This document shows positions 13,745 through 45,129 of a DNA stretch of 64,000 nt, piece after piece. The DNA is taken from positions 1-64,000 of IMG/VR virus record IMGVR_UViG_3300028797_000159; one strand, 5' to 3'. The first letter of the stretch is position 1. Every line of letters begins with the position of its first letter. The translations under genes were made by a program, and so were the position numbers. The notes beneath the pieces are model-generated. The model made no database searches. It was not told where the DNA came from and saw only the letters and a list, made by a program, of their open reading frames with translations. The stretch comes from a virus. Taxonomy: Duplodnaviria; Caudoviricetes.

Positions 13745-14377
13745 ATGAAAGTAATTCATTCATCTTATGAAATTTTTACGGATCTTTCAAATCCAATTGA
13801 AGCAATTTTAAAACCAATTGAACGAGCTGGTAGGATTTGTTATAAATCTGAAAATAATATAACAAATGATAGTTGTATTCAGTTTTGTAAAAATATTATT
13901 AGTCGTGGACATGAAGCTGTAATTGAGCATTCACAATTATCTGTTAAATTTACAATTGATAGGGCTATTGCAAATGAACTTGTGAGACATAGACTAGCAA
14001 GCTACTGTCAAGAGTCAACAAGATATTGTTCATATAATAAAAATAAATTTGGGAATGAAATTAAAGTTATTATTCCTGAAGATTTAGAAAATGATGTTGT
14101 TAACTATAGTATTTGGTATGAGTCTTGTATGCACGCTGAAAATGCATATATGGCTTTATTGAGTAATAATGTAAAACCTGAATTAGCTCGTAATGTGCTT
14201 CCATTATCAACAGCTACAGAAATTATTATGACTGCAAATATAAGGGAATGGCGTAATGTATTTCGTCTGCGCACATCATCTTTTGCACATCCACAAATGC
14301 GGTCTATAATGAGATCACTTTTAAAAGAATTGCAAAATAAAATTCCAGTATTATTTGACGATATTACATATAATTAA
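13745..14377 (+). CDS. thyX: FAD-dependent thymidylate synthase
   Basis: GHEAVIEH, ELVRHRLASYCQESTRY (RHRx7S), ELARNVLP, AHPQMR. Confidence 0.95.
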   Translation: MKVIHSSYEIFTDLSNPIEAILKPIERAGRICYKSENNITNDSCIQFCKNIISRGHEAVIEHSQLSVKFTIDRAIANELVRHRLASYCQESTRYCSYNKNKFGNEIKVIIPEDLENDVVNYSIWYESCMHAENAYMALLSNNVKPELARNVLPLSTATEIIMTANIREWRNVFRLRTSSFAHPQMRSIMRSLLKELQNKIPVLFDDITYN

Positions 14378-14553: not shown

Positions 14554-14790
14554 ATGACAGGTGATAGACTTATTACTCATAATTCCAGTGAGCTTTGGTC
14601 GCTGTTAAGTATCATTAAAAATGATTTTCCCAAACTAAAGAAAATGGGTTATTCATTTGCTTCTGTAGTAGAAGGTCATAATTGTGAATGCTTTGTATAT
14701 GGTTGGAAACAACGTTCACGCGCAGTGAATGAAGCCATTATGAATGATGGTCTTGCATTCGATCTTAAAACTAATAAAAAGTTATTCTAA
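14554..14790 (+). CDS. hypothetical protein
   Basis: ORF downstream of cassette 7. Confidence 0.6.
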   Translation: MTGDRLITHNSSELWSLLSIIKNDFPKLKKMGYSFASVVEGHNCECFVYGWKQRSRAVNEAIMNDGLAFDLKTNKKLF

Positions 14791-14806
14791 CGCTAAGGGG
14801 CTAAAT

Positions 14807-15838
14807 ATGAAACTCGCAAATATTCCATTCGTACAACAGATGATTGATTCTAAATATATTGTTGTTCGTAAACACCATGAGTTTGATTTATATATTTATA
14901 ACTATACTAAACAAGCTGCAGCCGAACATGTTTGGAATGAAGCAACTGAACAGTGCCGTGGAATTATTTGTGATAAAGAAATGAATGTTGTTGCACGTCC
15001 ATTTGCAAAATTCTATAACTATGAAGAGCTTTTACAGCAAGGTAAACAAATTCCTGATCTTCCATTTGAAGTATATGAGAAACTTGATGGTTCATTAGGT
15101 ATCTTGTATTTTTATAACGGAAAACCGTATATTGCAACTCGTGGGTCATTTGATTCTGCACAAGCAAAACATGCAACTGATATTTTATATTCAAAATATT
15201 CAGATAAATTAGATTTATTAGATAAATCAAAAACTTATTTGTTTGAAATTATTTATAAAGACCCAATGACTTCACTTGTTGTGAACTATGGCGATACTGA
15301 TGATATTTTCCTTATTGCTGTAATTGACACTGAAACTGGTTTTGAAGATGATATTTATGATTATAAACACATCTTTAAAACTACTACTAAATATGAATCA
15401 GTAAAAGACTATTTATCATTCCGTAAAGATCAGAGTGGATATAACCGAGAGGGCTTTGTAATTAAATTCTCAAATGGATTTCGTATGAAATTAAAATTTG
15501 AAGAATATTTTAAAGCACATTCAGCTCAATTCCATTTGAGCATTAAATCAGCATATAAAGCTATTTTGGAAAATAAAGTTGATAAAGTCCGTTCATATAT
15601 TGATGAACATTTATCAGAAGAATCAGCTTTATATTTTGATGAATTAGTTAAATCAGTGTATACTAAATACAAAGACATTGAAGATGAGTGTTTATCTAAA
15701 TTTCGTGATGATTTTAAATCACGACAAGAAGCTGCACAATATTTCTTACAATGTAAATATTCAAAAGTCTTATTCCAATTATATGATGGAAAAGATTATT
15801 CGAAATTTATTTGGAAATTAGTTGAAAAAGAATTATAA
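14807..15838 (+). CDS. T4 Rnl1-type RNA ligase
   Basis: IYNYT, CRGII, RPFAKFYN, EKLDGS (motif I), ATRGSF, EGFVIK, RMKLK. Confidence 0.9.
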   Translation: MKLANIPFVQQMIDSKYIVVRKHHEFDLYIYNYTKQAAAEHVWNEATEQCRGIICDKEMNVVARPFAKFYNYEELLQQGKQIPDLPFEVYEKLDGSLGILYFYNGKPYIATRGSFDSAQAKHATDILYSKYSDKLDLLDKSKTYLFEIIYKDPMTSLVVNYGDTDDIFLIAVIDTETGFEDDIYDYKHIFKTTTKYESVKDYLSFRKDQSGYNREGFVIKFSNGFRMKLKFEEYFKAHSAQFHLSIKSAYKAILENKVDKVRSYIDEHLSEESALYFDELVKSVYTKYKDIEDECLSKFRDDFKSRQEAAQYFLQCKYSKVLFQLYDGKDYSKFIWKLVEKEL

Positions 15839-18804: not shown

Positions 18805-18967
18805 ACATATAATAAGATTTATATATGTAACAGTGATCTTCAGGCATAAACGTTGATGATATAACGTTCGCCCAATATGGAAGTTCCGATAAATTCCATA
18901 ATATCGTATGATTCCGAAGTACAAGGAATCTTAATATTATGGTAACCTATAGTAATATAGGTAATTT

Positions 18968-19051
18968 GCTCGAATGGCGAAATTGGTAAACGCGACAGAC
19001 TCAAAATCTGTTATCTTCATTGATTTGAGAGTTCGATTCTCTCTTCGAGCA
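18968..19051 (+). tRNA. tRNA-Leu(CAA)
   Basis: gctcgaa/ttcgagc acceptor; acaga-ctCAAaa-tctgt; gttcga T-loop. Confidence 0.92.
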
Positions 19052-19055
19052 TTAT

Positions 19056-19126
19056 TCCGTGATAGTTTAATAGTAGAACAGTGGACTTTGACTCCGCCAG
19101 TATAGGTGCAATTCCTGTTCACGGAA
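19056..19126 (+). tRNA. tRNA-Gln(UUG)
   Basis: tccgtga/tcacgga; gtgga-ctTTGac-tccgc. Confidence 0.85.
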
Positions 19127-19195
19127 TTTCTTTGAAAAATAAATAAAAGAAAGTTAAATATAATGTACATCTTATGTATATTATAATTATAACAT

Positions 19196-19279
19196 GGGTG
19201 GTTTACCTAAGTGATCAACAGGTCGAGGCTGTAAACCTCGCGGCTAACGCCTTCGGTGGTTCGAATCCATCATCGCCCA
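19196..19279 (+). tRNA. tRNA-Tyr(GUA)
   Basis: cgagg-ctGTAaa-cctcg; long variable arm. Confidence 0.9.
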
Positions 19280-19283
19280 TTAT

Positions 19284-19365
19284 GCGAGAATGGTGAAATT
19301 GGTAAACACATAGCACTTAAAATGCTACGCTTTTTAGCTTGAGGGTTCGATTCCCTCTTCTCGCA
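19284..19365 (+). tRNA. tRNA-Leu(UAA)
   Basis: gcgagaa/ttctcgc; tagca-ctTAAaa-tgcta. Confidence 0.92.
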
Positions 19366-19370
19366 CTTAT

Positions 19371-19457
19371 GCTCTTGCAGCGAAATGGGCAAACGCGGCG
19401 GTTTTAATCACCGACTGGTGATAAACACCTTGAGGCTTCGAGAACTCTCCAAGAGCA
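19371..19457 (+). tRNA. atypical tRNA-Leu(UAA)-like / pseudo-tRNA
   Basis: Good acceptor, D and variable arms; loop tttaatc has U37; irregular T-arm. Confidence 0.6.
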
Positions 19458-19462
19458 TTTAT

Positions 19463-19773
19463 AGCGGAGTAGCTCAGCGGTCAGAGCAGTGGTCTTAGAC
19501 AATATGAGTGCCCAATAAGAAATTATTGGAGTAGAACGTCCCTAATTCAAGAAAACCCTAAACAGATAACGCTGTAGGCAATCTTGAGCTAAAACATATA
19601 ATTTAATTATATGTAAATGTGCAGAGACTATATAGGACGGTGCTAAATTCTTTTTAAGAACATGCATAAGAAATAGTCCAGACTACAACAACTATTAATT
19701 ATTATAGTTGGCTATGGAAACATAGAGTAGTAAGATAAACCATTGGTCGTGAGTTCAATTCTCACCTTCGCTA
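19463..19773 (+). tRNA. tRNA-Ile(UAU) split by a group I intron (exons 19463-19496 and 19735-19773)
   Basis: Joined exons give agcggag/cttcgct acceptor, gtggt-ctTATaa-accat anticodon arm and gtgag-ttcaatt-ctcac T-arm. Confidence 0.8.
19497..19734 (+). ncRNA. group I self-splicing intron (238 nt, no ORF)
   Basis: P aattcaagaaaac, Q ggcaatcttgagc, R gtgcagagactata, S aagaaatagtcc; terminal G. Confidence 0.9.
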
Positions 19774-19892
19774 TTTATAAATTTTAGTGGGACAGATGGT
19801 TGCCGCCATTTGATGAGAATCTCCAACTCATCTAACCACTAAGTTTTCTGATACGGCAATATCAGTTTAATAAAGTTAAAACGGAGGTAACT

Positions 19893-20735
19893 ATGTGTTG
19901 CTTTAATAACGAAGAATACGTAAAGCATGATTATGTATGCGAATTCTGTAATAAGAAATTCTTTACATATAAACATGCATTTGCTTACCATGTTAATAGA
20001 TGCAGTTGTAATCCTGAAAGTTCACATTACATAAAAGAACACAGCGTAACCTGCATAAAATGCGGTAATCCGTTTATAGTTAAATGCACTGATTCTCAGT
20101 TTGAAAAGGGCGCTTATCGTAAATATTGCTCTACTAAATGCAGTCAATCCAGAGTACTTACTGAAGAACAAAGAGCTAAAATTTCTAATTCGTTATATAC
20201 TCATTATGGTACTTCTCCACATGAAGTAGCTTATTGTGTCTGTTGTGGAAAATCATTGTCTAATAATAATGAATCTGGTTACTGTATAAACTGTATTCGC
20301 ACACATAACAAAGAATTTAGAGAGCAATACCCATTGTCAGATGAGGTAAAATCAAAGTTGTCTGTAGCTGGCAGAAAAGGTGTGGTTAATCAAGCAGAGA
20401 TAAGACGTTCTAAAAATGAAATTGCTTTTTGCAATTTGTGTGAACAGTACTTTTCCAATGTAGAACATAATGCGCCAATCTTTAATGGGTGGGACGCTGA
20501 CGTTATTATACACGATATTAAATATGCAGTGCTATGGAATGGTAAATGGCATTATGAAAAGATCACCGCCAATCATTCTGTAGAACAAGTACAGAACAGA
20601 GATCGTATTAAAATAAATGAGATCATTAAATATGGTTATACACCATACATTATAAAAGATGTAGGCAAGCACAAAGAATCATTTGTTAGAGAAGAGTTTG
20701 ATAAATTTATCAAGCTAGTTTCTACAAAAGATTAG
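19893..20735 (+). CDS. free-standing endonuclease: Zn fingers plus Vsr/DUF559-like PD-(D/E)xK domain
   Basis: CEFC, CIKC..YCSTKC, CVCC..CINC; WDADVII...VLWNGKWHY. Confidence 0.65.
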   Translation: MCCFNNEEYVKHDYVCEFCNKKFFTYKHAFAYHVNRCSCNPESSHYIKEHSVTCIKCGNPFIVKCTDSQFEKGAYRKYCSTKCSQSRVLTEEQRAKISNSLYTHYGTSPHEVAYCVCCGKSLSNNNESGYCINCIRTHNKEFREQYPLSDEVKSKLSVAGRKGVVNQAEIRRSKNEIAFCNLCEQYFSNVEHNAPIFNGWDADVIIHDIKYAVLWNGKWHYEKITANHSVEQVQNRDRIKINEIIKYGYTPYIIKDVGKHKESFVREEFDKFIKLVSTKD

Positions 20736-20765
20736 CGCAACCTGGGATCAGGACTCCGCTATTTT

Positions 20766-20853
20766 GGAGAAATGCGATAATGGTTATTCGAGCGGATTGC
20801 TAATCCGTCATACAATTTAATTTGTATTGCAGGTTCGAGTCCTGCTTTCTCCG
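20766..20853 (+). tRNA. tRNA-Ser(GCU)
   Basis: ggagaaa/tttctcc; gcgga-ttGCTaa-tccgt; long variable arm. Confidence 0.9.
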
Positions 20854-20924
20854 ATTTATTATTCGTAGGGTATAATTATTATGATTATAACTTACATTTC
20901 CTACTTATATAATTTGGAGGATTT

Positions 20925-26774: not shown

Positions 26775-26898
26775 TTTGCACGTCGTATCGAATTGTATCG
26801 AAAATCCCTGGTACAATTTGATACGATTTTTTTGTTTACAAGCTAACAGTTTTGACGTATAATATACCCATAAATTGAATGAGAATGGACTCATTCAA
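26775..26898 (+). promoter_or_regulatory. repeat cassette copy 12
   Basis: -35 26835; -10 26858; canonical hairpin. Confidence 0.9.
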
Positions 26899-26922
26899 GC
26901 TTTCCATACAAGGAGAATGCTT

Positions 26923-28149
26923 ATGTCGACTCTCGATAGCAAACAGATTAATGTTAATGGTACAATCTTCTCGTTCGCACAGCTTACAAACAATCCTGAT
27001 AAATATATTCCTTTGTTTAGTTCAATATTTCGTACTAGCACAATGAATCAAAAAGCTGATGAATCTAAAAAGGAATATCTTAAACGTTTGTTCCGATTGG
27101 CATTTTATACAAAACATCTTGCTGTGACAGCTGATACTCAAGTCACTGCTGATAATGCTAACACTGACGAAAATACTACAGTACAGGTTAGCACAGCATC
27201 ACCATTGAAAACTCAAAACTGTGTACTCAATACATTGGGTATTGATGTTGTTAGTCGTGCAAAAGTAACATCAAAGATTATTTTTAAAAATTCAGGTAAT
27301 GATTACAAAATTACAAATGAATATCTTGACAAACTGATTGCTACAGTGAATGATAAATCCAAATATGAACACCCAGATGTTAAAATTAAATTTGGTGTTG
27401 AATTTGAATTTATTGGACTAGCTACTTCTAATGCTCGAGCAAATTTCAGAGATGCAATGTGTGAGCTTGTTGGTGTTGATAATTACAATGAATCTCTTAA
27501 TTACCATCATAATAGTGGTGGTAAATGGGACTTGGGAACAGATGGCTCACTGCATACTACAAGCAGAGGCTTCTGTGGATATGAATTGACAACACCAATT
27601 TTGAGCCTTGATAGTCAAGAAGACCTTAATACACTTAAACGTGTATTAGAGCTTATGTTTATTCACTTTGAAGCCCATCCTAATAAAACATGTGGTACTC
27701 ATGTTCATATGAGCTTTGATGTTCCTAAAGTTACTCGTACACTTATTAAACAGTTTGCCCAAGTATATAAAAATAGTGAATCTACATTGTTTGATAAATT
27801 AGTTCGTTCAGATCGTAGAGGTAGTAGCAATCGTTATTGCCGTTCAGTTAATGTTGATTATACTTCTGAACGATTTTGCAAACTTAACTTTCAAAATGCA
27901 GTAATTGATTCAAATAGTCTTCACCTTGAATTCCGTCAACTTCAGGGAACACTTGATTTTGATAAAGTAGTTGCCTGGGTTAAACTTCAGAAGATGTTTG
28001 TTGAATATACATTGAATGTTATTAAAAATAATGATAGTGTAGACTTCTCATCTTTTGAAGGTTTTGAATTTGAGAAAACTATTTGTGATGATAGTTTTAA
28101 TATTGCTGATATTGAAAGCTTCTTGGTAATGAGTAAGTCTGTTGCATAA
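26923..28149 (+). CDS. putative amidoligase (COOH-NH2 ligase, Amidoligase_2-like)
   Basis: FGVEFEF, GTDGSL, GYELTTPIL, NKTCGTHVH, LEFRQLQGT. Confidence 0.85.
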   Translation: MSTLDSKQINVNGTIFSFAQLTNNPDKYIPLFSSIFRTSTMNQKADESKKEYLKRLFRLAFYTKHLAVTADTQVTADNANTDENTTVQVSTASPLKTQNCVLNTLGIDVVSRAKVTSKIIFKNSGNDYKITNEYLDKLIATVNDKSKYEHPDVKIKFGVEFEFIGLATSNARANFRDAMCELVGVDNYNESLNYHHNSGGKWDLGTDGSLHTTSRGFCGYELTTPILSLDSQEDLNTLKRVLELMFIHFEAHPNKTCGTHVHMSFDVPKVTRTLIKQFAQVYKNSESTLFDKLVRSDRRGSSNRYCRSVNVDYTSERFCKLNFQNAVIDSNSLHLEFRQLQGTLDFDKVVAWVKLQKMFVEYTLNVIKNNDSVDFSSFEGFEFEKTICDDSFNIADIESFLVMSKSVA

Positions 28150-28227: not shown

Positions 28228-29211
28228 ATGAGTATAGAACAGATAAATGAATTATTTTCTAAATATGATTTAACTAATTTTCAAAAATTTAAAAATTACT
28301 ATACATTTAATTCAAATAACAATAACTTGAAAATTTCAAGTCAATTATTTGAAAAAATGTTAAAAGCTGCTAATAATACAGATGATAAATTAGTTGTTAA
28401 TATTCCTAATCTTAAATTTGGAATAGAGTTTGAATTTGTAGGGTCACTTTTATTTGAAGATACACAAGCTTTTAACGAAGCAATGATAGATTTGCTTGGT
28501 GATAACTATATATTTGAATTTCGATACTTACATAATAATGGTGAGAAGTGGATTCTTGGTAAAGATGGATCGATAAAATATAATCAAGACACAGATATAC
28601 CATTATATGGTTATGAACTATCAACACCAACACTTATCTTAAATGATAAAACTATTGAAGTATTAACTAAAGTAATTAGTTATATTAAAACATATTTACA
28701 TGGTGAAGTAAATAGTTCATGTGGAACACATATTCATATTGGGTTTGACAGCAGTAAAATATATAGAGACCATATTGAAACATTACTAGCAATATATTCA
28801 ACAATGGAATCAACTGTATTTGACCCAATTGTTCCAACATCTCGTCGTAGAAATAAATATTGTAGAGCTACTAGTGTACTTATAAATAAAAAATATACTA
28901 AATTAAGTGCAAGATATTGTAGGTTTAATTATAATAGAGAGTGTCATACATTTCATGTTGAATGCAGACAACTTGAAGGAACACTTGATTTAGACACAAT
29001 TATAAATTGGTTAATACTACAATCTACAATAATTTATGATATAATTTCACATATAGATGATTGTCAGTATCTTTATAAACTACGTTATAATAATGCATTT
29101 GACATACTATTTAAATATAAATTTAATAATAGTTTAATTGCATTTTTTATTAAACGTATTATTGACTTTAAATCAAAGACAATACAAACATGTAGTCCAC
29201 CAGCACTTTAA
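28228..29211 (+). CDS. putative amidoligase, second copy
   Basis: FGIEFEF, GKDGSI, YELSTPTL, NSSCGTHIH, VECRQLEGT. Confidence 0.85.
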   Translation: MSIEQINELFSKYDLTNFQKFKNYYTFNSNNNNLKISSQLFEKMLKAANNTDDKLVVNIPNLKFGIEFEFVGSLLFEDTQAFNEAMIDLLGDNYIFEFRYLHNNGEKWILGKDGSIKYNQDTDIPLYGYELSTPTLILNDKTIEVLTKVISYIKTYLHGEVNSSCGTHIHIGFDSSKIYRDHIETLLAIYSTMESTVFDPIVPTSRRRNKYCRATSVLINKKYTKLSARYCRFNYNRECHTFHVECRQLEGTLDLDTIINWLILQSTIIYDIISHIDDCQYLYKLRYNNAFDILFKYKFNNSLIAFFIKRIIDFKSKTIQTCSPPAL

Positions 29212-29283: not shown

Positions 29284-29985
29284 ATGTGTGAAATATATGG
29301 ATTTTGTGGTTCAAGTCCAACTATTATAAATAAATATACAAATGAATTTTGGATGCATGCTAAAGTTCATAAAGATGGTTTTGGATATTATCTTGCAGAT
29401 AAAGATGAATTATATGTAAATCCTGCTTCAGCTATCGCTTATTTTGATAAGCTATCTAAAAAGAAATTTGAAACTAGTTTGGCGTTATGTCACATTAGGT
29501 TTAAAACACATGGTCCAGCAACAAAAGAAAACTGTCATCCGTTTTCTAAATATGATTGTAGAGGAATTAAATGGACTTTAATTCATAATGGTTATATTTG
29601 TGATAATTGTAACACAGCTGCATTATCTACAATTCAAACTGGTGAAACAGATAGTGAGAGGATGTTGCTTTCAATCGTTGAAGCTATAAATCATTTTTAT
29701 GAACATTCATGTGTAGAAAATCCAAATGAATTTAAAATATTTTTATATGCATGTATTGAACGTGAGATTCAAGATCTATCTCAATTAGGTAAAACTAATT
29801 TTATTTTTACAGATAATGCAACTAATAACATGTATGTTTACATGAATCATGCAAATACTTTGTTTTTGTTGAAAACACCTGATGGTATTCATGTTTCAAC
29901 AACTAAACTTTCCAATGAAAATTGGATGCCTGTAGAGCCACATAAACTACATGTTTTTAATAATGGTGAACGAGTAGATTATTAA
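29284..29985 (+). CDS. class II glutamine amidotransferase
   Basis: M-C start, HKDGFG, HIRFKTHG, NCHPF, HNG, TDSE. Confidence 0.9.
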   Translation: MCEIYGFCGSSPTIINKYTNEFWMHAKVHKDGFGYYLADKDELYVNPASAIAYFDKLSKKKFETSLALCHIRFKTHGPATKENCHPFSKYDCRGIKWTLIHNGYICDNCNTAALSTIQTGETDSERMLLSIVEAINHFYEHSCVENPNEFKIFLYACIEREIQDLSQLGKTNFIFTDNATNNMYVYMNHANTLFLLKTPDGIHVSTTKLSNENWMPVEPHKLHVFNNGERVDY

Positions 29986-31751: not shown

Positions 31752-32300
31752 ATGGATAAGACATTTGAAGCTACTACGAAAAAAGAGCTTATTGATAATA
31801 TTCTTAAAATGATGGTTACACCAAATGTAAAACAACCAGTACATTCAGATAAAGATGAATCTAATTATAAATCATTTATTAAGTCTGTTAATCTAAGTCA
31901 TAAAGCGACAGTTGAATTGCCATTGGATTATGCTATTCGTCATGAAATGTTTAATCTAATTAAAACTGGTAAAGTTTATATTAAAAGTTCTATTAGATTT
32001 ACTACAGTATTCACAACTGAAATGCCTACTGATGTAACAGCATCATCATTTAATGCTACATATACTGGCCATGAGTTTTATTATTCATTTCTTGATAATC
32101 ATCCTGGAATTATCAATGTTGACAAACTAAAAGATATTCCTATTGATTATGAGGGTTTGATGGCTGTTCCATTAACTGTCCTTGAATTTAAGAATTTTAT
32201 TAGATTTAATGTATATAGAGTATTATATACGCCTAAGCATAATGGTAAAATAATTTATCCTAGAGTTGTTGTTTCAAATAAAGTTGCAATCACTGATTAA
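31752..32300 (+). CDS. EcoRI-family adenine methyltransferase C-terminal-like fragment
   Basis: INVDKLKDIPIDYEGLMAVPLT...NGKIIYPRVV; no SAM-binding or NPPF motif seen. Confidence 0.55.
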   Translation: MDKTFEATTKKELIDNILKMMVTPNVKQPVHSDKDESNYKSFIKSVNLSHKATVELPLDYAIRHEMFNLIKTGKVYIKSSIRFTTVFTTEMPTDVTASSFNATYTGHEFYYSFLDNHPGIINVDKLKDIPIDYEGLMAVPLTVLEFKNFIRFNVYRVLYTPKHNGKIIYPRVVVSNKVAITD

Positions 32301-32324: not shown

Positions 32325-32828
32325 ATGACAAAGTATTCCAATTCTATGAATAGATCAGCACTTATTGATGAGCCTATTGTTGAAATGCTTCTTTCTAAGA
32401 AATATGCTTCATCAGGAATTTCTTTTCAGAAGGAATATAAAAATTCTACATTGATGTATTCAGTAAATGGAGTTCATAGAAATCTTTTTATTAAACGCAA
32501 TTCGTCTAAATATTATAATTCAAATAATTTCTTTATCACACTAAATAAAAATCGACTTGATGTATTTAATAATGCAACATATGTCTTTATTGATGAAGTT
32601 TCAAATGCACTTTATTTAGTTGATGGCATGAATTTACTTAAGTTTATTTTGAATCATAAAGACAATATTAATCAAATTGATAATACTGAAAATTATTATA
32701 TCTTAATATCTAAAGCTGACATTATTTCTTTGACTGATAGTAAAAATCAGATTATAAATTATAATAATCAATTTGCTACTTTATTTAAAATGTATAGAGA
32801 CGAATCTAATTTTACGAATCTTATGTGA
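32325..32828 (+). CDS. hypothetical protein
   Basis: AAGGAG RBS. Confidence 0.6.
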   Translation: MTKYSNSMNRSALIDEPIVEMLLSKKYASSGISFQKEYKNSTLMYSVNGVHRNLFIKRNSSKYYNSNNFFITLNKNRLDVFNNATYVFIDEVSNALYLVDGMNLLKFILNHKDNINQIDNTENYYILISKADIISLTDSKNQIINYNNQFATLFKMYRDESNFTNLM

Positions 32829-32862: not shown

Positions 32863-33396
32863 ATGGGAAATATTATTTTTAACAAAACACGTAAAGTCAC
32901 ATCGCCAACTTCTGCATATGGTAAACCTGCTGCAGTTGATTTCTATATTCCTGAATACTCGCCAGAATTGTCAACTGATTTGGTAAATAAAAACCCAAAT
33001 AGGTATGATTATAAACTTGACATTTCACCTAAATTGGATTCAATGACAATCACACTTATGCCTAATGGTAGAATCCTAATTCCATCAGGCATTCGTGTCA
33101 TTATTAATGACCCTAATACTTGTTTACTTGCTGTAAATAAATCAGGTATTGCTTCTAAGAAGGGACTAATTATCGGAGCTGCATTAATCGACGAAGATTA
33201 TACAGGTGAAATACATCTTAATCTTATCAATACTACTAGAGACATTGTTCAACTTAAAACTGGTGATAAAGTAGTACAATTTATGCACCTTCCAATTATT
33301 CGTTCAGAATTTCAGGAAGTCTGTTCAGAAGACTTTGATAAACTTAAGCCTGACTCTAAACGTGGCGATAAAGGGTTTGGTAGCTCAGGCACATAA
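32863..33396 (+). CDS. dut: trimeric dUTPase
   Basis: AAVDF, NKSG, IDEDYTGEI, GDKVVQ, RGDKGFGSSG. Confidence 0.92.
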   Translation: MGNIIFNKTRKVTSPTSAYGKPAAVDFYIPEYSPELSTDLVNKNPNRYDYKLDISPKLDSMTITLMPNGRILIPSGIRVIINDPNTCLLAVNKSGIASKKGLIIGAALIDEDYTGEIHLNLINTTRDIVQLKTGDKVVQFMHLPIIRSEFQEVCSEDFDKLKPDSKRGDKGFGSSGT

Positions 33397-33411
33397 TAAA
33401 GGCCATAGTAA

Positions 33412-33780
33412 ATGCCTAATGCTGAATATATTGATGAGAAATTAAAATGTTTACTGCATGAAGCTGAAGGATTTTCACAATTAAATACTTGTCTAGGTGT
33501 TCGTCTTTCAGATCATGCCGCCCAATTATGTGGGTGTAGGTCAACTCGTCAGATAAGTGATAGCGCTGCTGATGACGTTGAACTTACATTTTTTGATTTA
33601 TTAAATCGTTTACATGACAACATTATTGAGTGTCTTTCATATTTGGAAAATGATCATGTATATAATGATAATGTAATGTCATTTAATGATGAAACACTTT
33701 CAAAGTATCTTGAAGATGTTTTATATTATATGACAATAGAAAATTACAGGTCATATTTTTATGAAAGCTTCTTTATATAG
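33412..33780 (+). CDS. hypothetical protein
   Basis: 122-aa ORF. Confidence 0.55.
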   Translation: MPNAEYIDEKLKCLLHEAEGFSQLNTCLGVRLSDHAAQLCGCRSTRQISDSAADDVELTFFDLLNRLHDNIIECLSYLENDHVYNDNVMSFNDETLSKYLEDVLYYMTIENYRSYFYESFFI

Positions 33781-33788
33781 GTGATTAT

Positions 33789-34367
33789 ATGAATTCGCAA
33801 AAGAAAAAGATAATTATTATAGAAGGTCCTGATAATGTTGGGAAGGATACACTTATTAATAAATTAAAAGAAACATTTAAAAATCCAGTAGTGTTTCATG
33901 CAGGTATTCCCGATAATAATAAAAGTTTACATAAGTTTTATTATGAAGGTATTATACATGATACTTTAGACAAATATTATAATTCAGATTGTGATGCTAT
34001 TATTCATAATAGGTCTTTTTATGGTGAATTTGTATATGGCCCAAAATATCGGAATATGTTTCCAGGAACAGCTGCACAATTAGTTTATGCTTTAGAAGCT
34101 GGACAATTAAGAACATTTATTCGAGAAGATGAATTATATCTTATACTTCTAACAAGTGATAATGTTAATTTACTTATTAATAATGAAGATGGAAAATCAT
34201 TATCATTAGCTGATAAGAAAAACATTTCAGACGAAATTGAACTATTTAATACTATATTTAAGCTGTCAGAAATTAAAAATAAAAAGAAGGTATTAGTTAA
34301 TAATGATGCATCTTTTAAAGATAAAAATGAAATTTATAATGAAGTTATAACATTCATTAATAAATAA
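33789..34367 (+). CDS. thymidylate-kinase-like dNMP kinase
   Basis: IIIEGPDNVGKDT P-loop; NRS..GE.VYG. Confidence 0.85.
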   Translation: MNSQKKKIIIIEGPDNVGKDTLINKLKETFKNPVVFHAGIPDNNKSLHKFYYEGIIHDTLDKYYNSDCDAIIHNRSFYGEFVYGPKYRNMFPGTAAQLVYALEAGQLRTFIREDELYLILLTSDNVNLLINNEDGKSLSLADKKNISDEIELFNTIFKLSEIKNKKKVLVNNDASFKDKNEIYNEVITFINK

Positions 34368-34369
34368 CT

Positions 34370-34933
34370 ATGTCAAAAACAATTTCAATTACAGGAAAAC
34401 CTGGGTCAGGTAAATCTACATTAATTCGTAAATTAAAAAATGAATTAAATATAAATACTGAACATCTTGTTAAGCATAATAATCGCAGTTATCATTATTT
34501 TAGTAATGATAATCATGTTTATATACTTGGAAAATATTCAGATGATACACCATTTGGTGGTGTAGATTTTTATAAAAGTAAATTGTTTTCTATAGATTTA
34601 ATTAATCTTATTATTAGCGATGATAAGGACGCAATTATATTTTTAGAAGGTGTTTTCTTTAAAAAATATAATTATGATGTTAAATTATTTTTATCAGTAA
34701 CAGATGATGTTTTAATTAAAAATCTACTAGATAGAGCTGCTGCTAATTATAATATTAAAAGATTTAAATCACCTGAAGAAATAGAAGCTAAATCAAAAAA
34801 GATTTTAGAGACATTTAAATATTTTGAAAATCGATTTAGAAAACAAGGTTATAAATTACTAAATAATAATACGGATGAAGAGCATGCAGCTAATTATCAA
34901 TTACTATTAAATTATGCTAATAATAAAATATAA
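34370..34933 (+). CDS. P-loop kinase
   Basis: ITGKPGSGKST; ILGKY...FGGVD; IFLEG. Confidence 0.75.
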   Translation: MSKTISITGKPGSGKSTLIRKLKNELNINTEHLVKHNNRSYHYFSNDNHVYILGKYSDDTPFGGVDFYKSKLFSIDLINLIISDDKDAIIFLEGVFFKKYNYDVKLFLSVTDDVLIKNLLDRAAANYNIKRFKSPEEIEAKSKKILETFKYFENRFRKQGYKLLNNNTDEEHAANYQLLLNYANNKI

Positions 34934-34942
34934 ATAAAAATT

Positions 34943-35060
34943 AAGTGTATTAAATTTGTAACTGGATTATATCAATAATAAATTAAAAATCCCTGATACA
35001 AATTTAATACACTTTTTCTATTTACAATGAGGCAATTTTATTGTATAATATATTTATAAA
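34943..35060 (+). promoter_or_regulatory. repeat cassette copy 14 (leader hairpin decayed)
   Basis: Perfect 18-bp aagtgtattaaatttgta/tacaaatttaatacactt; -35 35021; -10 35044. Confidence 0.8.
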
Positions 35061-35202
35061 TTAAATAACAATATTATATATTGGATAATATTATGCGTAA
35101 CATCGATTCTGAAGACGAACCGTTTGTATTTATATTTGCAATGATAGTTATTGCAGGATTAGTTATTGGTATTATGAAACTTATTATGGTGTGAGGATTC
35201 AC

Positions 35203-35895
35203 ATGCTCCCAATGGCTACAACAGAAGATATTAGAAATGAATTAAAAGATCTCTATAATAACAAAGTCTTTCGTGAAGGTAAATACGGAAAGACTGTTGA
35301 GATTCAAAATGCACATTTTTTAGCAGATAGTGACTCAATCATTCGTGCGCCTAATTATGATTATGCTAAACGTGAAATTGAATGGTATGAATCTCAATCA
35401 CTATATGTGAAAGACATTCCTGGTGGCGCACCAAAAATTTGGCAAGCTTGTGCAGATAGAGATGGTAAGATCAATAGCAATTACGGATGGTGTATATTTT
35501 CAGACGAGAATTACAGACAATTTTATAATTGTGTAGATCGATTGCTATATGATAAATATACACGAGAAGCTTGCATGATTTACAATCGTCCATCTATGCA
35601 ATACGATTGTACTTATCATGGCATGCATGACTTTATGTGTACTTATGCCACTCAAGTATTTTTAAATGACATAGGTAATAATAAATATAAGCTTGATTAT
35701 ACTGTATTTATGAGAAGTTGCGATGCTGTTTTTGGGTATGATAATGACGTACTATGGGCACAATATGTTCAAAATAAAATGGTTGATGAATTAAAGTATT
35801 ATGATAAAGATGTGATTCCTGGTAGTATTATTTGGAATGCTGGTAGTCTTCATGTTTATGAAAGGCATTTTAAATATTTAATGGAGATTGAATAA
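35203..35895 (+). CDS. T4 gp42-like dCMP hydroxymethylase (thymidylate synthase superfamily)
   Basis: INSNYG, DFMCT, MRSCDAVFGYDND (Asp at the dCMP-specificity position), GSIIWNAGSLHVYERHF. Confidence 0.85.
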   Translation: MLPMATTEDIRNELKDLYNNKVFREGKYGKTVEIQNAHFLADSDSIIRAPNYDYAKREIEWYESQSLYVKDIPGGAPKIWQACADRDGKINSNYGWCIFSDENYRQFYNCVDRLLYDKYTREACMIYNRPSMQYDCTYHGMHDFMCTYATQVFLNDIGNNKYKLDYTVFMRSCDAVFGYDNDVLWAQYVQNKMVDELKYYDKDVIPGSIIWNAGSLHVYERHFKYLMEIE

Positions 35896-36185
35896 TGAAA
35901 AAGTTATTTGTATTTCTATTTGCTATATTAATTTTTACTTTTATTCCAATTGCTTCATTTGCACAACCACGGCATCCATTACCTCCTCCACCTGGAGGAT
36001 ATCGTCCTGCTGTGATTGAACATTGTTATACTGTTCTTATTCCATTCCCACATAGAAAATGCGAGATTCGATATTTATATAATTATACTCCAGCACCGCC
36101 ACCTCCTAGACGACATACTCCAATGCCACCTCCGCCCCCAAAAGGTCATCCATCGCCACATCACCACCATCACACACATAAATAA
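35895..36185 (+). CDS. small secreted Pro/His-rich protein
   Basis: Signal peptide; PPPP runs; HHHHH tail. Confidence 0.6.
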   Translation: MKKLFVFLFAILIFTFIPIASFAQPRHPLPPPPGGYRPAVIEHCYTVLIPFPHRKCEIRYLYNYTPAPPPPRRHTPMPPPPPKGHPSPHHHHHTHK

Positions 36186-38243: not shown

Positions 38244-38307
38244 TATGTTAATCTACCTTCAATATCAATATATGATAAATGCTATATTATATCATATTGG
38301 AGGTATT

Positions 38308-39195
38308 ATGAATAGAAATCAATATAAGCTAGCTTGTCTTAATAAAGTTGTAGGAATCCATAAATGGGAATACAAAGTAAAAAGATTACAAAGGTCATTA
38401 AAATATAATAATGATCCTAATGCAAATTGCATTCATCATTTACAAGATACTGAAGAGCAAATAAAGTATAACGATGAACATTATGAGTATTTTGGTTTCA
38501 ATGAAGATGGAACGTTTGAGTATGGAAAATACGTAATATTTGTAACTAAAGAGTGGCATGATAATTATCATCGAAATTCTGCATTAACAAAACAACGTAT
38601 AAGCGATGGATGTAAACAAGTATGGCAACGCGATGGTTATCGTGAATATATGAGTAAAATGCATAGTGATTATTATAAGGATAATCCAGAAGCTATTGAA
38701 AATATGAAAGCTTTTTCAAAAGAATATTGGACAAACAAACGTAGGATTGAGGCTAGTGAACAAAGATCACAATATTATTTAGAGCATCCAGAAACCAAAG
38801 AACTTATTAGTCAAAATAGAAAAGGTAAATGCGTAGGTAAAGATCATCCATTTTATGGAAAACATCATACTGATGAGACTAAAAATAAAATTAGTATTTC
38901 ACAAAAAGCTAATATGACTGATGAGCATAGGAAGGTTATTAGTGAAGCTACTAAAGAAGCGATGAAAGACCCTATTATAAGACAAAAAATTATAGATGCA
39001 AATACAGGTGAAAACAATCCTAATTATGGAAAACCACGAGATGATGAAACACGTTCAAAAATAAGTCAATCTAAAAAATCTTATATGTTAAAATTAGGTG
39101 ATCTATTTAGAGAATATAAAGCAAATGGTGGAACATTGAAATGGAATCAGTTTCAGACATATGCTAAAGATAATCATTTGTTAGATGATAAATAG
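38308..39195 (+). CDS. HNH/NUMOD3 homing-type endonuclease
   Basis: IHH...EWHDNYH; HPFYGKHHTDETK; NPNYGK. Confidence 0.75.
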   Translation: MNRNQYKLACLNKVVGIHKWEYKVKRLQRSLKYNNDPNANCIHHLQDTEEQIKYNDEHYEYFGFNEDGTFEYGKYVIFVTKEWHDNYHRNSALTKQRISDGCKQVWQRDGYREYMSKMHSDYYKDNPEAIENMKAFSKEYWTNKRRIEASEQRSQYYLEHPETKELISQNRKGKCVGKDHPFYGKHHTDETKNKISISQKANMTDEHRKVISEATKEAMKDPIIRQKIIDANTGENNPNYGKPRDDETRSKISQSKKSYMLKLGDLFREYKANGGTLKWNQFQTYAKDNHLLDDK

Positions 39196-41880: not shown

Positions 41881-43134
41881 ATGTCCATTGAATGCCCACG
41901 TAGAATTGATTATCTTGCAGCACGTTGTAATCAACTTGGTATTAATGTTGTACAAGCTGGTAATAAATTAATGAAAGATGATTATGTAAAAGCTTTACGT
42001 AATTATTTTTTAATAGAACAATATGGGTCAATTGATAATATTCCGTGGGCACTTAAGTTTATGTTGTCTATTGAATGCCCACAATTGTGCAGGCGCATTA
42101 AAGACCTTAAACCTGATAAACAAAAATTGTTGTGGGAATCACCTGATTGGATTGCTGAAGAGAAAGTGGATGGGGTCCGCATGTTGATCTTATATGATTC
42201 TTCTGAAAAGAAGTTTCATTTTTATAGTAGAAACAACTCAGTGACTGATTATCTTCCACAAGATTATAGTGATACAATTCTTGTTTCTATAAAAGATAAT
42301 TTTTATTATCCAGAAAACTTTGTTCTTGATTGTGAAATTATTAGCACTAATCCAGAGACTGAGACTAACACGCAGTGCTTAACACAATTACAATCTACAG
42401 CTGCGTTATTGAATTTAAATGCTGAAGATTCTAAACAAATTCAAAAAGATAATCCACTTAAGTTTATAGTCTTTGACTGTCTATATGATAGTAAAAATCT
42501 TATAGACGAAACATGGAATATTCGTCATAGACATGCTGACAAGCTTGCTTTTATATTGAAGGAAAATGGATTTTTATGTGAGTTAAATAAGGTTGTAGAA
42601 AATACAGCAGATAATCCTTATGCAAAACGTGAATATTTTGAGAAGCTAGTCGCAGATAATAAAGAAGGTGTAGTGCTTAAAAATCGAAATGCGAAATATC
42701 ATGCTTGCTCATCACGAACAATAGATTGTGTTAAAGTTAAACGTTCAACTGATGATACACTTACGCGTGATCTTGACGCCTTTATTACAGATTATGTTGT
42801 TGGGAATGATGATACAAAAAATGAGAATCTTGTTGTAGGATTTGTATTTTCTATTATGATGGAAAAAGATGATGGAAGTACAGTAACTCATCCAATTGCA
42901 GTTTGTTCAAATGTCTCTGACTTTATTAAAGAAGATGCAACTGTTATTGATGCTGATGGTAATGTGACATTGAATAAGAAATATTATGGTAGAGTTGCTA
43001 CATTACAAGGACAAAATATATCAGCACGACAACTTCGACTAACACATTCAATTATTAAGAATTGGCGTCCTGATCGTTCCCCTGAAACAACGGAAATTGT
43101 CAAAGAATCTGTGCTTAAAGCTTTAGTGTTCTAA
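41881..43134 (+). CDS. ATP-dependent DNA ligase
   Basis: EEKVDGVR (I), LDCEI (III), FIVFDCL (IIIa), EGVVLK (IV), VKVK (V). Confidence 0.88.
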   Translation: MSIECPRRIDYLAARCNQLGINVVQAGNKLMKDDYVKALRNYFLIEQYGSIDNIPWALKFMLSIECPQLCRRIKDLKPDKQKLLWESPDWIAEEKVDGVRMLILYDSSEKKFHFYSRNNSVTDYLPQDYSDTILVSIKDNFYYPENFVLDCEIISTNPETETNTQCLTQLQSTAALLNLNAEDSKQIQKDNPLKFIVFDCLYDSKNLIDETWNIRHRHADKLAFILKENGFLCELNKVVENTADNPYAKREYFEKLVADNKEGVVLKNRNAKYHACSSRTIDCVKVKRSTDDTLTRDLDAFITDYVVGNDDTKNENLVVGFVFSIMMEKDDGSTVTHPIAVCSNVSDFIKEDATVIDADGNVTLNKKYYGRVATLQGQNISARQLRLTHSIIKNWRPDRSPETTEIVKESVLKALVF

Positions 43135-43181: not shown

Positions 43182-44132
43182 TTATATAGTATATAGTGAT
43201 AAAGGCATAATAGCGAATGTTATATCACCTGATTTAATTGCTTTTCTAAATAGCGACTTACTTAATTTACCACCACTAGATGCATATATTTCATACAGAA
43301 ATTTATACGCATTATTTGTTTTTCTTTGGCCTTCTATTATCTTTCTTTTTCTTTCTTCAGAGCATGGTTTACCATACATTGGGTTTTTCTCACCCTTTGC
43401 ATTTTCACTTCTTTTCTTTCTTAATTCTTCTGAGGCAGGATGTTCTTTGAAATATGTCTTCCATCTCTCACTTTCAGCCGACCTCATTTCATCAGTCCAT
43501 CTACTTTTATTAGTTTCTATATTTTTAGCTCTATACTCTGGATCAAGCCATTTAGCTTTAGATGCTTCACTCATTTTTTGCTTTGATTCTTCTGTATGAT
43601 GTTTTCCTTTAAATGCACTTTCTTTCCCATACATTGGGTGAAGTTCACCACATCTACCATAGCATGGAGCTAATTCACTCTTTCTACCATACATAGGATT
43701 GTTTTCACCACTGTTTGCTTCACTTAATAAATTTTTAGTTTCAGCTGTATGATGCTTGCCGTACATGCCGTTCTTTTCGCCAGTTAATCTTACATCATAC
43801 ATAGGATTGTTTTCACCATGTCTATCTGGCATACTGTCTCTAATTCTTTGTTTAGTTATTTCAGATAAAGCATGTATTTGGCTATGTTCTTCTTTTGTTA
43901 CAAAGACCATATATTTTCCATATTCAAAAGTACCATCTAAATTATGACCCCACATCTCATAATGATTTGTATTATATTCAATTTGTTCTTGAGTGTCCAT
44001 TAAATGATGTCGAACAGTGGCATTTGGGTTTGGATTATATTTTAATGATTTTTGAATCTTCCTAGATTTTAAATCATATTCACGAACATTAGCACCAGAA
44101 TGAACGGCTTTCCAATATTCTTTCATATTCAT
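43182..44132 (-). CDS. HNH/NUMOD3 homing-type endonuclease, paralog of 38308
   Basis: SLKYN.NPNA..HHL.DT.EQI...DGTFEYGKY..FVTKE shared; NPMYG repeats. Confidence 0.8.
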   Translation of the reverse strand: MNMKEYWKAVHSGANVREYDLKSRKIQKSLKYNPNPNATVRHHLMDTQEQIEYNTNHYEMWGHNLDGTFEYGKYMVFVTKEEHSQIHALSEITKQRIRDSMPDRHGENNPMYDVRLTGEKNGMYGKHHTAETKNLLSEANSGENNPMYGRKSELAPCYGRCGELHPMYGKESAFKGKHHTEESKQKMSEASKAKWLDPEYRAKNIETNKSRWTDEMRSAESERWKTYFKEHPASEELRKKRSENAKGEKNPMYGKPCSEERKRKIIEGQRKTNNAYKFLYEIYASSGGKLSKSLFRKAIKSGDITFAIMPLSLYTI

Positions 44133-44349: not shown

Positions 44350-45129
44350 ATGGCACTAAATATTAAAAATGGATTAGTCCAAATTAATGAAACTTCTGAA
44401 GAACGTATTATTAATGTCCATCTTAAAAATGGATTTGCAATGTTAACTGCATTTAGAAGTGAGTTTTCATTTTCTGAAAATAGATCTAGAAATAGACAGC
44501 TAGCAAATGATTTAAAAAATTTAGGTTATAGCTATATAAAAATAACTGGCGGTTATATTGAAACAATTACACCTGATAATCCAAATTGGGATGATGCTGA
44601 TATCATATATGGTAGGGATGATATTAGACAACTTCCTATTATGGAAGAATCATTTTTAGTTACCATGTTTAATTATAAAACAGGTGAATCTACTGATTTT
44701 AAATCATTTAGAAATGATATGATTAAACTTGGTATTAAGTATGAACAGGATTCAATACTTATTGCACCGCCAAAAGATACAGGTAAACCTGCATATATTA
44801 TTACCAATAGTAGATCAGGCGATGTTGGAAGCATTGATTGTGAATTTAGTAATTTGTCTGTAGCAAATGTAGCTAATACATATTTTTCAATGAAAGAAAA
44901 GACGATAAATAAAGCTCGAGCAAAACGTCGAGAAGGTGTAGGTGGTATTAAATTTGAATCAGCATGGCTAGATGAGCCAGCGCATACTGTCTCAGGCGTT
45001 AGAATTCGTGATAATAGAAATGAGATACCACCATTTGGTAGTCATTACTATAATATGAGCAATCTCAATAAAGATTCTATGCTAGAAGCACGAATTCGTA
45101 AACTTGAAAAGATGCTTAATATTAAATAA
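44350..45129 (+). CDS. DUF3293-like phage protein with C-terminal LEARIRKLEK
   Basis: AMLTAFRS, NRQLANDL..LGY, EESFLV, YEQDSIL. Confidence 0.55.
   Translation: MALNIKNGLVQINETSEERIINVHLKNGFAMLTAFRSEFSFSENRSRNRQLANDLKNLGYSYIKITGGYIETITPDNPNWDDADIIYGRDDIRQLPIMEESFLVTMFNYKTGESTDFKSFRNDMIKLGIKYEQDSILIAPPKDTGKPAYIITNSRSGDVGSIDCEFSNLSVANVANTYFSMKEKTINKARAKRREGVGGIKFESAWLDEPAHTVSGVRIRDNRNEIPPFGSHYYNMSNLNKDSMLEARIRKLEKMLNIK

Follow-up and report, generated by a model that had tools for sequence, protein, structure and literature searches.

A T4 gp42-type dCMP hydroxymethylase and a stand-alone HMUDK_hel protein in a partial phage genome: a predicted cytosine-replacement locus and a possible non-sugar route of base hypermodification

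Which modified base is made by a phage whose gene for a T4 gp42-like enzyme lies beside two kinase genes and a dUTPase gene, with no glucosyltransferase gene at hand, and what might happen to this base once it has entered the DNA? The question is raised by the locus at positions 32863-35895 of the stretch of DNA analysed here (hereafter the window), which covers the initial 64 kb of a linear IMG/VR virus record of 72,562 bp (IMGVR_UViG_3300028797_000159; G000). An earlier note on this DNA had proposed that cytosine is replaced in the genome by a modified base whose final form may be new. The analysis reported here strongly supports the prediction that the locus represents the nucleotide-level half of a cytosine-replacement pathway; as to the later steps, we regard as evenly balanced the idea that 5-hydroxymethylcytosine (5hmC), formed at the nucleotide level ahead of replication, is further modified once in the DNA, with no sugar involved, via an HMUDK_hel protein encoded elsewhere in the window. 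The completeness of the record is 34% according to CheckV, and the phage should therefore have a genome of roughly 200 kb; the guanine-plus-cytosine content is about 29% and nearly all genes lie on the + strand. The full stretch was recovered solely in bovine gut metagenome sequencing runs, and the bovine gut may be the source of the phage. Its closest relatives are also metagenomic records, namely G001 (204 kb, 95% complete), G005 (91 kb), G006 and G007, with G003 and G004 more distant. All the assignments to a modification pathway are inferred from sequence. The Pfam scans covered 111 of the 132 open reading frames (ORFs) listed for the record (all those of at least 100 aa and most of those of 70-99 aa), and NCBIfam gave no match above its cut-offs. 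The genes of the locus named in the earlier note were found where it had placed them, all on the + strand.

The gene from which the whole argument starts (35191-35895, + strand) codes for a gp42-type deoxycytidine monophosphate (dCMP) hydroxymethylase, i.e., a predicted 5-hydroxymethyl-dCMP (5hm-dCMP) synthase. Its product aligns with the structures of the T4 enzyme (PDB 1b49, 1b5d, 1b5e and 6a9b) with an E value of 2.9e-59 and an identity of approximately 50%, residues 9-230 corresponding to residues 6-224, and it also matches the Pfam family Thymidylat_synt (PF00303, 1.8e-10) and phrog_160 (4e-46). A tblastn search retrieved about 1000 phage records, led by the gp42 homologues of Straboviridae at about 50% identity, including those of Acinetobacter and Klebsiella phages. 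It is the sole gene of the thymidylate synthase (TS) family in the record, and its product has a length of 230-234 aa, like gp42. The true start is probably the ATG at 35203 and not the GTG at 35191, because a GAGGA motif lies 7 nt 5' of this ATG and the homologues in related phages start with a matching MLP.

The specificity of the enzyme was approached by mapping its residues through alignments with E. coli ThyA, T4 gp42 and the deoxyuridine monophosphate (dUMP) hydroxymethylases of SP10 (gp188) and of Bacillus phage Nachito. The segment RSCDAVFGYDND (residues 175-186 of the 35191-35895 ORF) includes D186 (codon 35746-35748, within FGYDND), which occupies the position of ThyA Asn177 and corresponds to D179 of T4; this bears out the observation of the earlier note that an Asp stands where thymidylate synthases have the dUMP-specifying Asn, according to the T4 gp42 pattern. 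The catalytic Cys is present (C150, equivalent to C146 of ThyA and C148 of T4), and an acidic residue, D147, lies at the position of ThyA L143. At ThyA D169 the Asp is kept (D178, within RSCD), as it is in all 13 related metagenomic homologues and in T4 gp42; E62 is also among the key residues of the hydroxymethylase. In published work, the change N177D was found to confer the preference for dCMP, and an acidic residue at position 143 to yield a hydroxymethyl rather than a methyl product via water access, D169N being the mark of the flavin-dependent 5-hydroxy-dCMP synthases of RB69, DLP3 and others (PMC13326640). All four published diagnostic positions (C146, D177, D143 and D169 in ThyA numbering) agree with the T4 type, and the prediction of a T4-type 5hm-dCMP synthase, in line with the gp42-like enzyme of the earlier note, is thus supported. 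The same note had left room for 5-hydroxy-dCMP as the product; this applies to the RB69-type enzymes, but they carry Asn169 where the enzyme studied here has Asp, which excludes that type for the window. Considering the pathway overall, a gp42-type route to 5hm-dCMP appears very probable.

The neighbouring genes are in agreement with this assignment. A deoxynucleoside monophosphate (dNMP) kinase-like P-loop protein (33789-34367, + strand; phrog_761, 6e-15), predicted to convert 5hm-dCMP into the diphosphate, is encoded approximately 0.8 kb upstream of the hydroxymethylase, with only the second kinase gene in between. Its gene is kept beside or near that of the hydroxymethylase in G001, G004, G005 and L141 as well as in the more distant L006, L007 and L008; an equivalent dedicated kinase for the modified monophosphate is needed in T4 and RB69 (PMC13326640). 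The canonical trimeric dUTPase (32863-33396, + strand; Pfam PF00692, 4e-15; PDB dUTPases, 1.5e-16, the C-terminal GFGSSG motif included) is predicted to provide dUMP for ThyX and to keep uracil out of the DNA. ThyX itself, the flavin-dependent synthase of thymidine monophosphate (dTMP), is encoded at 13745-14377 (+ strand; Pfam Thy1, 1.1e-43), so that two further statements of the earlier note stand: dTMP supply is covered separately, and the neighbours of the hydroxymethylase are a dNMP kinase, a second P-loop kinase and a dUTPase, each with PHROG, Pfam or PDB matches.

The second part of the question concerns the fate of 5hmC in the DNA, and here the most informative gene is that at 8872-9927 (+ strand), which codes for a stand-alone HMUDK_hel protein, i.e., a clade 1 aGPT-Pplase (Pfam PF18723, 3.7e-29, full-length and above the family cut-off). 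The aGPT-Pplases were reportedly defined by Iyer et al. in 2013. The window protein aligns to residues 316-599 of SP10 gp186, that is, to its C-terminal half; the N-terminal half of gp186 is by itself active as a 5-hydroxymethyldeoxyuridine (5-hmdU) DNA kinase (PMC8989533). In the Nachito record the two halves are separate genes lying side by side, annotated as "P-loop nucleotide kinase" and "aGPT-pyrophosphorylase clade 1". The structural model of the HMUDK_hel protein (predicted local distance difference test, pLDDT, 87.8) has a helix-hairpin-helix (HhH) glycosylase-like fold, and its VIA-align neighbours were the queuine salvage enzyme (Z 10.4), the 5-phosphomethyl-deoxyuridine (5-PmdU) glycinyltransferase of PaMx11 (8z2m; Z 9.2 over 218 residues, root-mean-square deviation 4.3) and HhH DNA glycosylases (Z 6-8.6), values that are middling for helical proteins, although the top matches all belong to one superfamily and cover the whole protein. 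With this model, a Foldseek search of the PDB yielded nothing at E <= 0.001. In the PaMx11 glycinyltransferase, Cys247 attacks C6 of the base (PMC11472151); in the C-terminal helix of the HMUDK_hel protein, Cys322 is invariant in 23 homologues. Based on the alignments and on the model, the protein is a candidate group transferase acting on an activated hydroxymethyl base in DNA. As a separate observation, a strain variant (L144), with an HMUDK_hel protein 97% identical, harbors directly 3' of this gene an extra 411-aa ORF (L144:11064-12299) that has no Pfam match and is absent from the window.

The substrate of HMUDK_hel proteins can be approached by comparing genomes. To this purpose, 80 viral loci with HMUDK_hel were collected by an alignment query (a single-protein query found none), and 30 parent records were searched for TS-family genes. 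A hydroxymethylase-type TS gene was found in 20 of the 21 HMUDK_hel records that are at least 90% complete, which suggests that the substrate of HMUDK_hel is a hydroxymethyl base. The 22 TS genes recovered came from phages of roughly 100 kb (20 complete records and two less complete ones), and all of them have Asn177 and Asp143 in frames of 387-429 aa, the dUMP hydroxymethylase signature of SP10 gp188; with SP10 and Nachito included, the frames of the Asn177 set span 382-429 aa, versus 230-234 aa for the Asp177 enzyme of the window. ThyX is absent from all 22 Asn177-type genomes and was found in four Asp177-type ones. Three records (G000, G004 and G005) combine HMUDK_hel, a gp42-like Asp177 enzyme of approximately 230 aa and ThyX; a single TS-family gene is present in each of G000, G001, G003 and G004, and neither G000 nor G004 yielded a dUMP hydroxymethylase. 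It appears from these data that HMUDK_hel tracks the producer of a hydroxymethyl-pyrimidine, which in this phage is predicted to be cytosine-specific, with thymidylate made in the normal way. In the HMUDK_hel tree, the lineage of the window forms its own long branch and the G004 protein falls among the uracil-associated ones, so that the pairing of HMUDK_hel with a cytosine-type enzyme seems to have arisen more than once. The two combinations, Asp177 plus ThyX versus Asn177 without ThyX, might also serve as a rule for sorting metagenomic phages.

The 22 Asn177-type genomes (85-124 kb, many with terminal repeats; among G008-G030, loci L113-L134 and L038-L111) deserve a mention of their own. They carry a stand-alone HMUDK_hel gene and a TS homologue of approximately 400 aa with Asn177 and Asp143, do not have ThyX, and are predicted to be modifiers based on 5-hydroxymethyluracil (5hmU), seemingly common in metagenomes; most of them lack a clear phrog_800-type kinase. 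One complete genome (G008, 86.6 kb) has one in-frame TGA in HMUDK_hel (C1:7236-8081) and two in a kinase-like frame (70935-71453), which suggests TGA recoding. In three uracil-type phage fragments (L048:4580-4837, L049:4580-4837 and L058:4577-4834), HMUDK_hel is directly followed on its 3' side by a stretch with weak similarity to the T4 beta-glucosyltransferase (E about 1e-4; 30% identity over 89 aa).

The second P-loop kinase of the locus (34370-34933, + strand; AAA_18) is a weakly assigned candidate for a DNA hydroxymethyl-base kinase. Its best PHROG match is to the N-terminal part of phrog_800 (5.6e-10; 4e-12 in another search, positions 29-190 of 511), above phrog_761 (1e-6). The Nachito P-loop kinase matches the same N-terminal part at 3e-47, the HMUDK_hel proteins, that of the window included, match the C-terminal part, and the PHROGs label of phrog_800, "terminase small subunit", is also the RefSeq label of SP10 gp186; phrog_800 is thus likely to be the gp186-like fusion family. 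PDB sequence searches with the second kinase, the dNMP kinase and HMUDK_hel returned nothing significant. The second kinase is rare, with four homologue clusters in 5.8 billion proteins; in the only cluster whose contigs were inspected (P0122, 78% identical), the gene again fills the slot that separates the dNMP kinase from the hydroxymethylase. A search aimed at longer homologues in which the kinase would be fused came up empty, a result of little weight. A role as a DNA kinase is possible, though not established.

The slot itself is variable. It is occupied by the P-loop kinase in this phage and its close strains, by a 416-aa protein of no known function, an NTP_transf_3+APH-like fusion, a HAD phosphatase and a C5-DNA-methyltransferase-like protein in G001, and by a C5-methyltransferase-like protein in G005. 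It looks like a swap site for DNA-modification genes, which would lend weak contextual support to such a role of the kinase. With regard to the relatives, the gene for the C5-DNA-methyltransferase-like protein (PF00145 at 3e-20 and 1e-21, with PVCSG as its catalytic-loop motif) lies beside or at most 10 kb from the gp42-like gene in G001 (L003:5305-9929) and G005 (L136:891-2201, - strand), and also in L004, L011 and L014; the enzyme may act on 5hmC or on residual cytosine.

Upstream of the nucleotide block the window harbors three further candidate tailoring genes, all on the + strand: two Amidoligase_2 genes (26875-28149 and 28228-29211; Pfam 2.9e-24 and 9.3e-21) and a gene for a class-II glutamine amidotransferase or EgtC-like amidohydrolase (29284-29985; Pfam 2.6e-20), whose product resembles the EgtC-type gamma-glutamyl amidohydrolases over nearly its full length (4.6e-6, below the family cut-off). 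The N-terminal 170 aa of the long amidoligase had no usable match in the ESM Atlas. In G001 and G005 these genes keep their synteny with the nucleotide block. Lee et al. reported amidoligases and glutamine amidotransferases of no known function from gene clusters with 5-hmdU DNA kinases (5-HMUDK) (PMC8989533).

Bringing these data together, the following scheme can be proposed. The gp42-type enzyme would convert dCMP and methylene-tetrahydrofolate into 5hm-dCMP, by analogy with the T4 enzyme, in which the Cys attacks C6 and an exocyclic methylene is quenched by water; the dNMP kinase would form the diphosphate and the host nucleoside diphosphate kinase the triphosphate, and the phage polymerase would incorporate 5hmC, the dUTPase and ThyX keeping thymidine canonical. 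After replication, 5hmC in the DNA might be derivatised along the lines of thymidine hypermodification. In this view, phosphorylation of the 5-hydroxymethyl group might fall to the second P-loop kinase (34370-34933), and the HMUDK_hel protein (8872-9927) might flip the base and swap the phosphate for an amine or amino-acid nucleophile, probably with its Cys attacking C6; an amide-linked side chain may in turn be built or trimmed by the EgtC-like amidotransferase and the two amidoligases. Taken in all its steps, i.e., from 5hmC to 5-phosphomethylcytosine through the kinase, then to a 5-(aminoacyl- or aminoalkyl-)methylcytosine through the clade 1 aGPT-Pplase, with a side chain extended or amidated by the amidoligases and the amidotransferase, the scheme is tentative and rather unlikely to hold as a whole.

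The predicted pathway can be compared with known systems. In T4, the pathway consists of the gp42 dCMP hydroxymethylase, the gp1 dNMP kinase, the gp56 dCTPase and the alpha- and beta-glucosyltransferases. As in T4, the phage analysed here has a dedicated dNMP kinase encoded just upstream of a hydroxymethylase that is approximately 50% identical to gp42 and shares its catalytic and specificity residues, and the hydroxymethyl nucleotide would be made before replication; unlike T4, it would obtain dTMP from ThyX and not from a ThyA-type Td, the 72.5-kb fragment yielded neither a gp56-type dCTPase nor a glucosyltransferase, and the neighbourhood includes a second P-loop kinase, the amidoligases and the amidotransferase, HMUDK_hel being encoded in addition. 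The thymidine hypermodification systems (SP10 gp186, Nachito, M6, ViI, PaMx11 and PhiW-14), on the other hand, combine a dUMP hydroxymethylase, a 5-HMUDK and an aGPT-Pplase. Points in common with them are a clade 1 protein related by homology to the C-terminal gp186 domain of SP10, separate genes for the kinase and the helical protein, as in Nachito, a fold resembling that of the PaMx11 glycinyltransferase, and the co-occurrence of amidoligase and amidotransferase genes, as in metaviromes. They differ from the window in that the sole hydroxymethylase here is of the dCMP type (Asp177) and ThyX is kept, so that the predicted substrate base is 5hmC and not 5hmU; moreover, the similarity of the kinase is marginal, and no clade 2 aGPT-Pplase, pyridoxal phosphate (PLP), radical-SAM or flavin tailoring enzyme was found in the contig.

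A precedent for amide chemistry on cytosine is offered by CmoX/CmoY of Synechococcus phage S-B43, where 5-carboxymethylcytosine is formed and glycine is then joined to it, on DNA, by an ATP-dependent amide ligation; ATP-dependent amide ligases, some of them with a glutamine-hydrolysing domain, can thus tailor the C5 side chain of cytosine in phage DNA. CmoY, however, is an asparagine-synthetase homologue and not an Amidoligase_2 protein, and the handle comes there from a C5-methyltransferase-like enzyme and carboxy-S-adenosylmethionine (Cx-SAM). A CmoX/CmoY-like route was considered for the window and set aside, the contig having no C5-methyltransferase-like gene; such a gene is present in G001 and G005.

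Several findings weigh against a derivatisation of 5hmC through HMUDK_hel, and several of them speak for an explanation that is quite possible, though not probable, namely that the phage makes T4-like 5hmC only, which would stay plain or receive a sugar from a transferase whose gene lies in the two thirds of the genome that are missing, while HMUDK_hel, the second kinase and the amidoligases would serve nucleotide or tRNA-repair metabolism or the modification of metabolites or proteins. The HMUDK_hel gene lies 25 kb from the hydroxymethylase cluster and is not clustered with it. Clade 2 aGPT-Pplases have been characterised, but a biochemical role of clade 1 is not demonstrated in the literature found (PMC8989533). 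The kinase resembles the 5-HMUDK enzymes only marginally: it has 23% identity to the Nachito kinase over 165 aa (E 0.011; common motif GKY..GGxDxxK), its end-to-end hhalign alignment with the SP10/Nachito kinase domain has an E value of 0.003 and a probability of 11% (with the neighbouring dNMP kinases, the P-loop alone aligns), and the pLDDT of its AlphaFold model, 54.8, is too low for the model to be usable. A function as a nucleotide or polynucleotide kinase is conceivable, given that Rnl1-like, RtcB and Thg1-like genes are present and that such an RNA-repair set could use a P-loop kinase. No clear phrog_800-type kinase accompanies HMUDK_hel in G004, G005 and G006, the extra kinase of G005 and G006 being of the phrog_761 type. 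G001, the closest near-complete relative (95%), with a hydroxymethylase 71% identical, lacks both HMUDK_hel and a phrog_800-type kinase and retains the dNMP kinase, the dUTPase, the amidoligases and the amidotransferase. The amidoligases and the amidotransferase may therefore serve another pathway, and HMUDK_hel and the kinase, missing together from G001, would represent an accessory add-on outside the core pathway of 5hmC synthesis; the absence of both would fit a common function.

The limited completeness of the records has to be considered as well. The Asp177 genomes with HMUDK_hel are 34-42% complete, and a second hydroxymethylase is possible in them; with two thirds of the genome of our phage missing, a glycosyltransferase may be encoded elsewhere. 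The earlier note had seen no glucosyltransferase in the window, and the wider search for glycosyltransferases and a dCTPase that it had proposed gave nothing in the 72.5-kb record either: no glycosyltransferase family appeared in the Pfam scans (of little weight, at a completeness of approximately 34%), tblastn with the T4 beta-glucosyltransferase gave no match, and no dCTPase was identified. Genome-wide searches of G000, G001, G003, G004 and G005 for the T4 glucosyltransferase families PF09198 and PF11440 were blank too, but carry no weight, as the one for PF09198 also missed T4 itself. Nor did the Pfam-scanned ORFs of this partial record include an aGPT-Pplase2, a PLP or a radical-SAM enzyme. 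The proposal of cytosine replacement thus has no dCTPase to lean on, whereas the suggestion of a new final form of the base gains indirect support from HMUDK_hel, from a kinase weakly similar to the 5-hmdU DNA kinases and from the amidoligases. What speaks against 5hmC alone is the lack of any glycosyltransferase among the scanned ORFs of the contig and the co-occurrence of HMUDK_hel with a pyrimidine hydroxymethylase in 20 of the 21 complete genomes, 5hmC being the only such base predicted here.

An ordinary thymidine hypermodifier, in which dUMP would be hydroxymethylated despite Asp177, or a hydroxymethylated cytosine nucleotide would be deaminated, to provide 5hmU for the kinase and HMUDK_hel, appears improbable. 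It would fit the fact that every characterised HMUDK/aGPT-Pplase system acts on 5hmU (PMC5889632, PMC8989533) and that amidoligase and amidotransferase genes are seen in such clusters (PMC8989533), but the enzyme of the window is approximately 50% identical to T4 gp42 and has Asp177, versus the Asn of all 22 HMUDK_hel-associated dUMP-type enzymes, SP10 and Nachito, its length of approximately 230 aa is that of gp42 and not the approximately 400 aa of the dUMP hydroxymethylases, ThyX is present, unlike in all 22 Asn-type genomes, and no deaminase was found in the contig. Finally, a flavin-dependent 5-hydroxy-dCMP synthase of the RB69 gp48/DLP3 gp80 type, feeding arabinosyl- or otherwise glycosylated 5-hydroxycytosine (5hoC), is very improbable, for although this family is also gp42-like, paired with a dNMP kinase, and has Asp177 and an acidic residue 143 (PMC13326640), and the top tblastn matches at about 50% identity include Acinetobacter and Klebsiella Straboviridae, its diagnostic Asn169 is replaced by Asp here and in 13 of 13 related metagenomic homologues, and the contig has none of the arabinose, sugar-nucleotide (NDP-sugar) or arabinosyltransferase genes of the arabinosylation clusters.

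Should 5hmC indeed be derivatised through HMUDK_hel, the consequences would be of some interest. The known kinase/aGPT-Pplase hypermodifications all start from 5hmU, and the known elaborations of nucleotide-derived 5hmC or 5hoC are all sugars; besides sugars on 5hmC or 5hoC, the known cytosine hypermodifications comprise TET-derived 5hmC glycans and 5-carboxymethylcytosine with a glycine amide. Neither a 5hmC DNA kinase nor 5-phosphomethylcytosine, nor an aGPT-Pplase system with cytosine as its target, turned up in full-text searches of the literature. The aGPT-Pplase chemistry would thus be extended to cytosine, with canonical thymidine retained, and both the DNA base and the enzyme specificity (a 5hmC DNA kinase and transferase) would be ones so far undescribed. 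New DNA bases resisting restriction enzymes and CRISPR nucleases would be predicted, and a 5hmC-specific DNA kinase and transferase might be useful for tagging 5hmC.

The remaining genes of the locus belong to a conserved module. Its order, common to G001, G005 and the close strain L141, is amidoligase, class-II amidotransferase, three ORFs of 131, 182 (with a short EcoRI-methylase-like stretch) and 167 aa, dUTPase, an ORF of 122 aa and dNMP kinase, with the gp42-like gene nearby. In the window, two of these genes (31752-32300 and 32325-32828, + strand) are 50-63% identical to, and syntenic with, those of the same three relatives, the former matching, over a short stretch, the C-terminal part of EcoRI_methylase in Pfam (7e-8). 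The conserved 122-aa protein (33412-33780, + strand), encoded at the same position in G001, G005 and L141, is 36-83% identical to its homologues and has an invariant D..AQ..G.RS.RQ stretch; no family or fold match was obtained from Pfam, PHROGs, the ESM Atlas or NCBIfam, the sub-0.9 cytokine-like matches of the ESM Atlas being taken as chance. The possibility that it is a MazG-like dCTPase was considered and dropped, as it has no family match and its motif is unlike that of such an enzyme. At the other end of the locus, a 96-aa ORF (35895-36185) has a start overlapping the stop codon of the hydroxymethylase (ATGA), a signal-peptide-like N-terminus and a Pro/His-rich tail ending in HHHHHTHK; weak homologues of it are found at the same place in G001 and G005.

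Elsewhere in the window, the RNA-repair and tRNA set mentioned above comprises a T4 Rnl1-like RNA ligase, RtcB, a Thg1-like tRNA-His guanylyltransferase homologue and five tRNA genes (two Leu, Gln, Tyr and Ser), at positions 14744-15838, 54808-56121, 58526-59293 and 18967-20854. Three paralogous homing-endonuclease-like genes with the NUMOD3 motif are dispersed along the record (38245-39195 and 43182-44132, the latter on the - strand, in the window, and 65736-66749 of G000), and the minus-strand one adjoins a DNA ligase gene (41881-43134). A protein similar to S-adenosylmethionine lyases (44350-45129; PF23780, 2.6e-7), 67% identical to its counterpart in G005, likely has an anti-restriction function. 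Among the 61 small ORFs of the window and G000, Pfam matches were obtained to Pyr_excise (a T4 endonuclease V-like pyrimidine-dimer glycosylase, 3e-10) and to LysC (an Rz1-like spanin, 6e-12), the latter suggesting a Gram-negative host.

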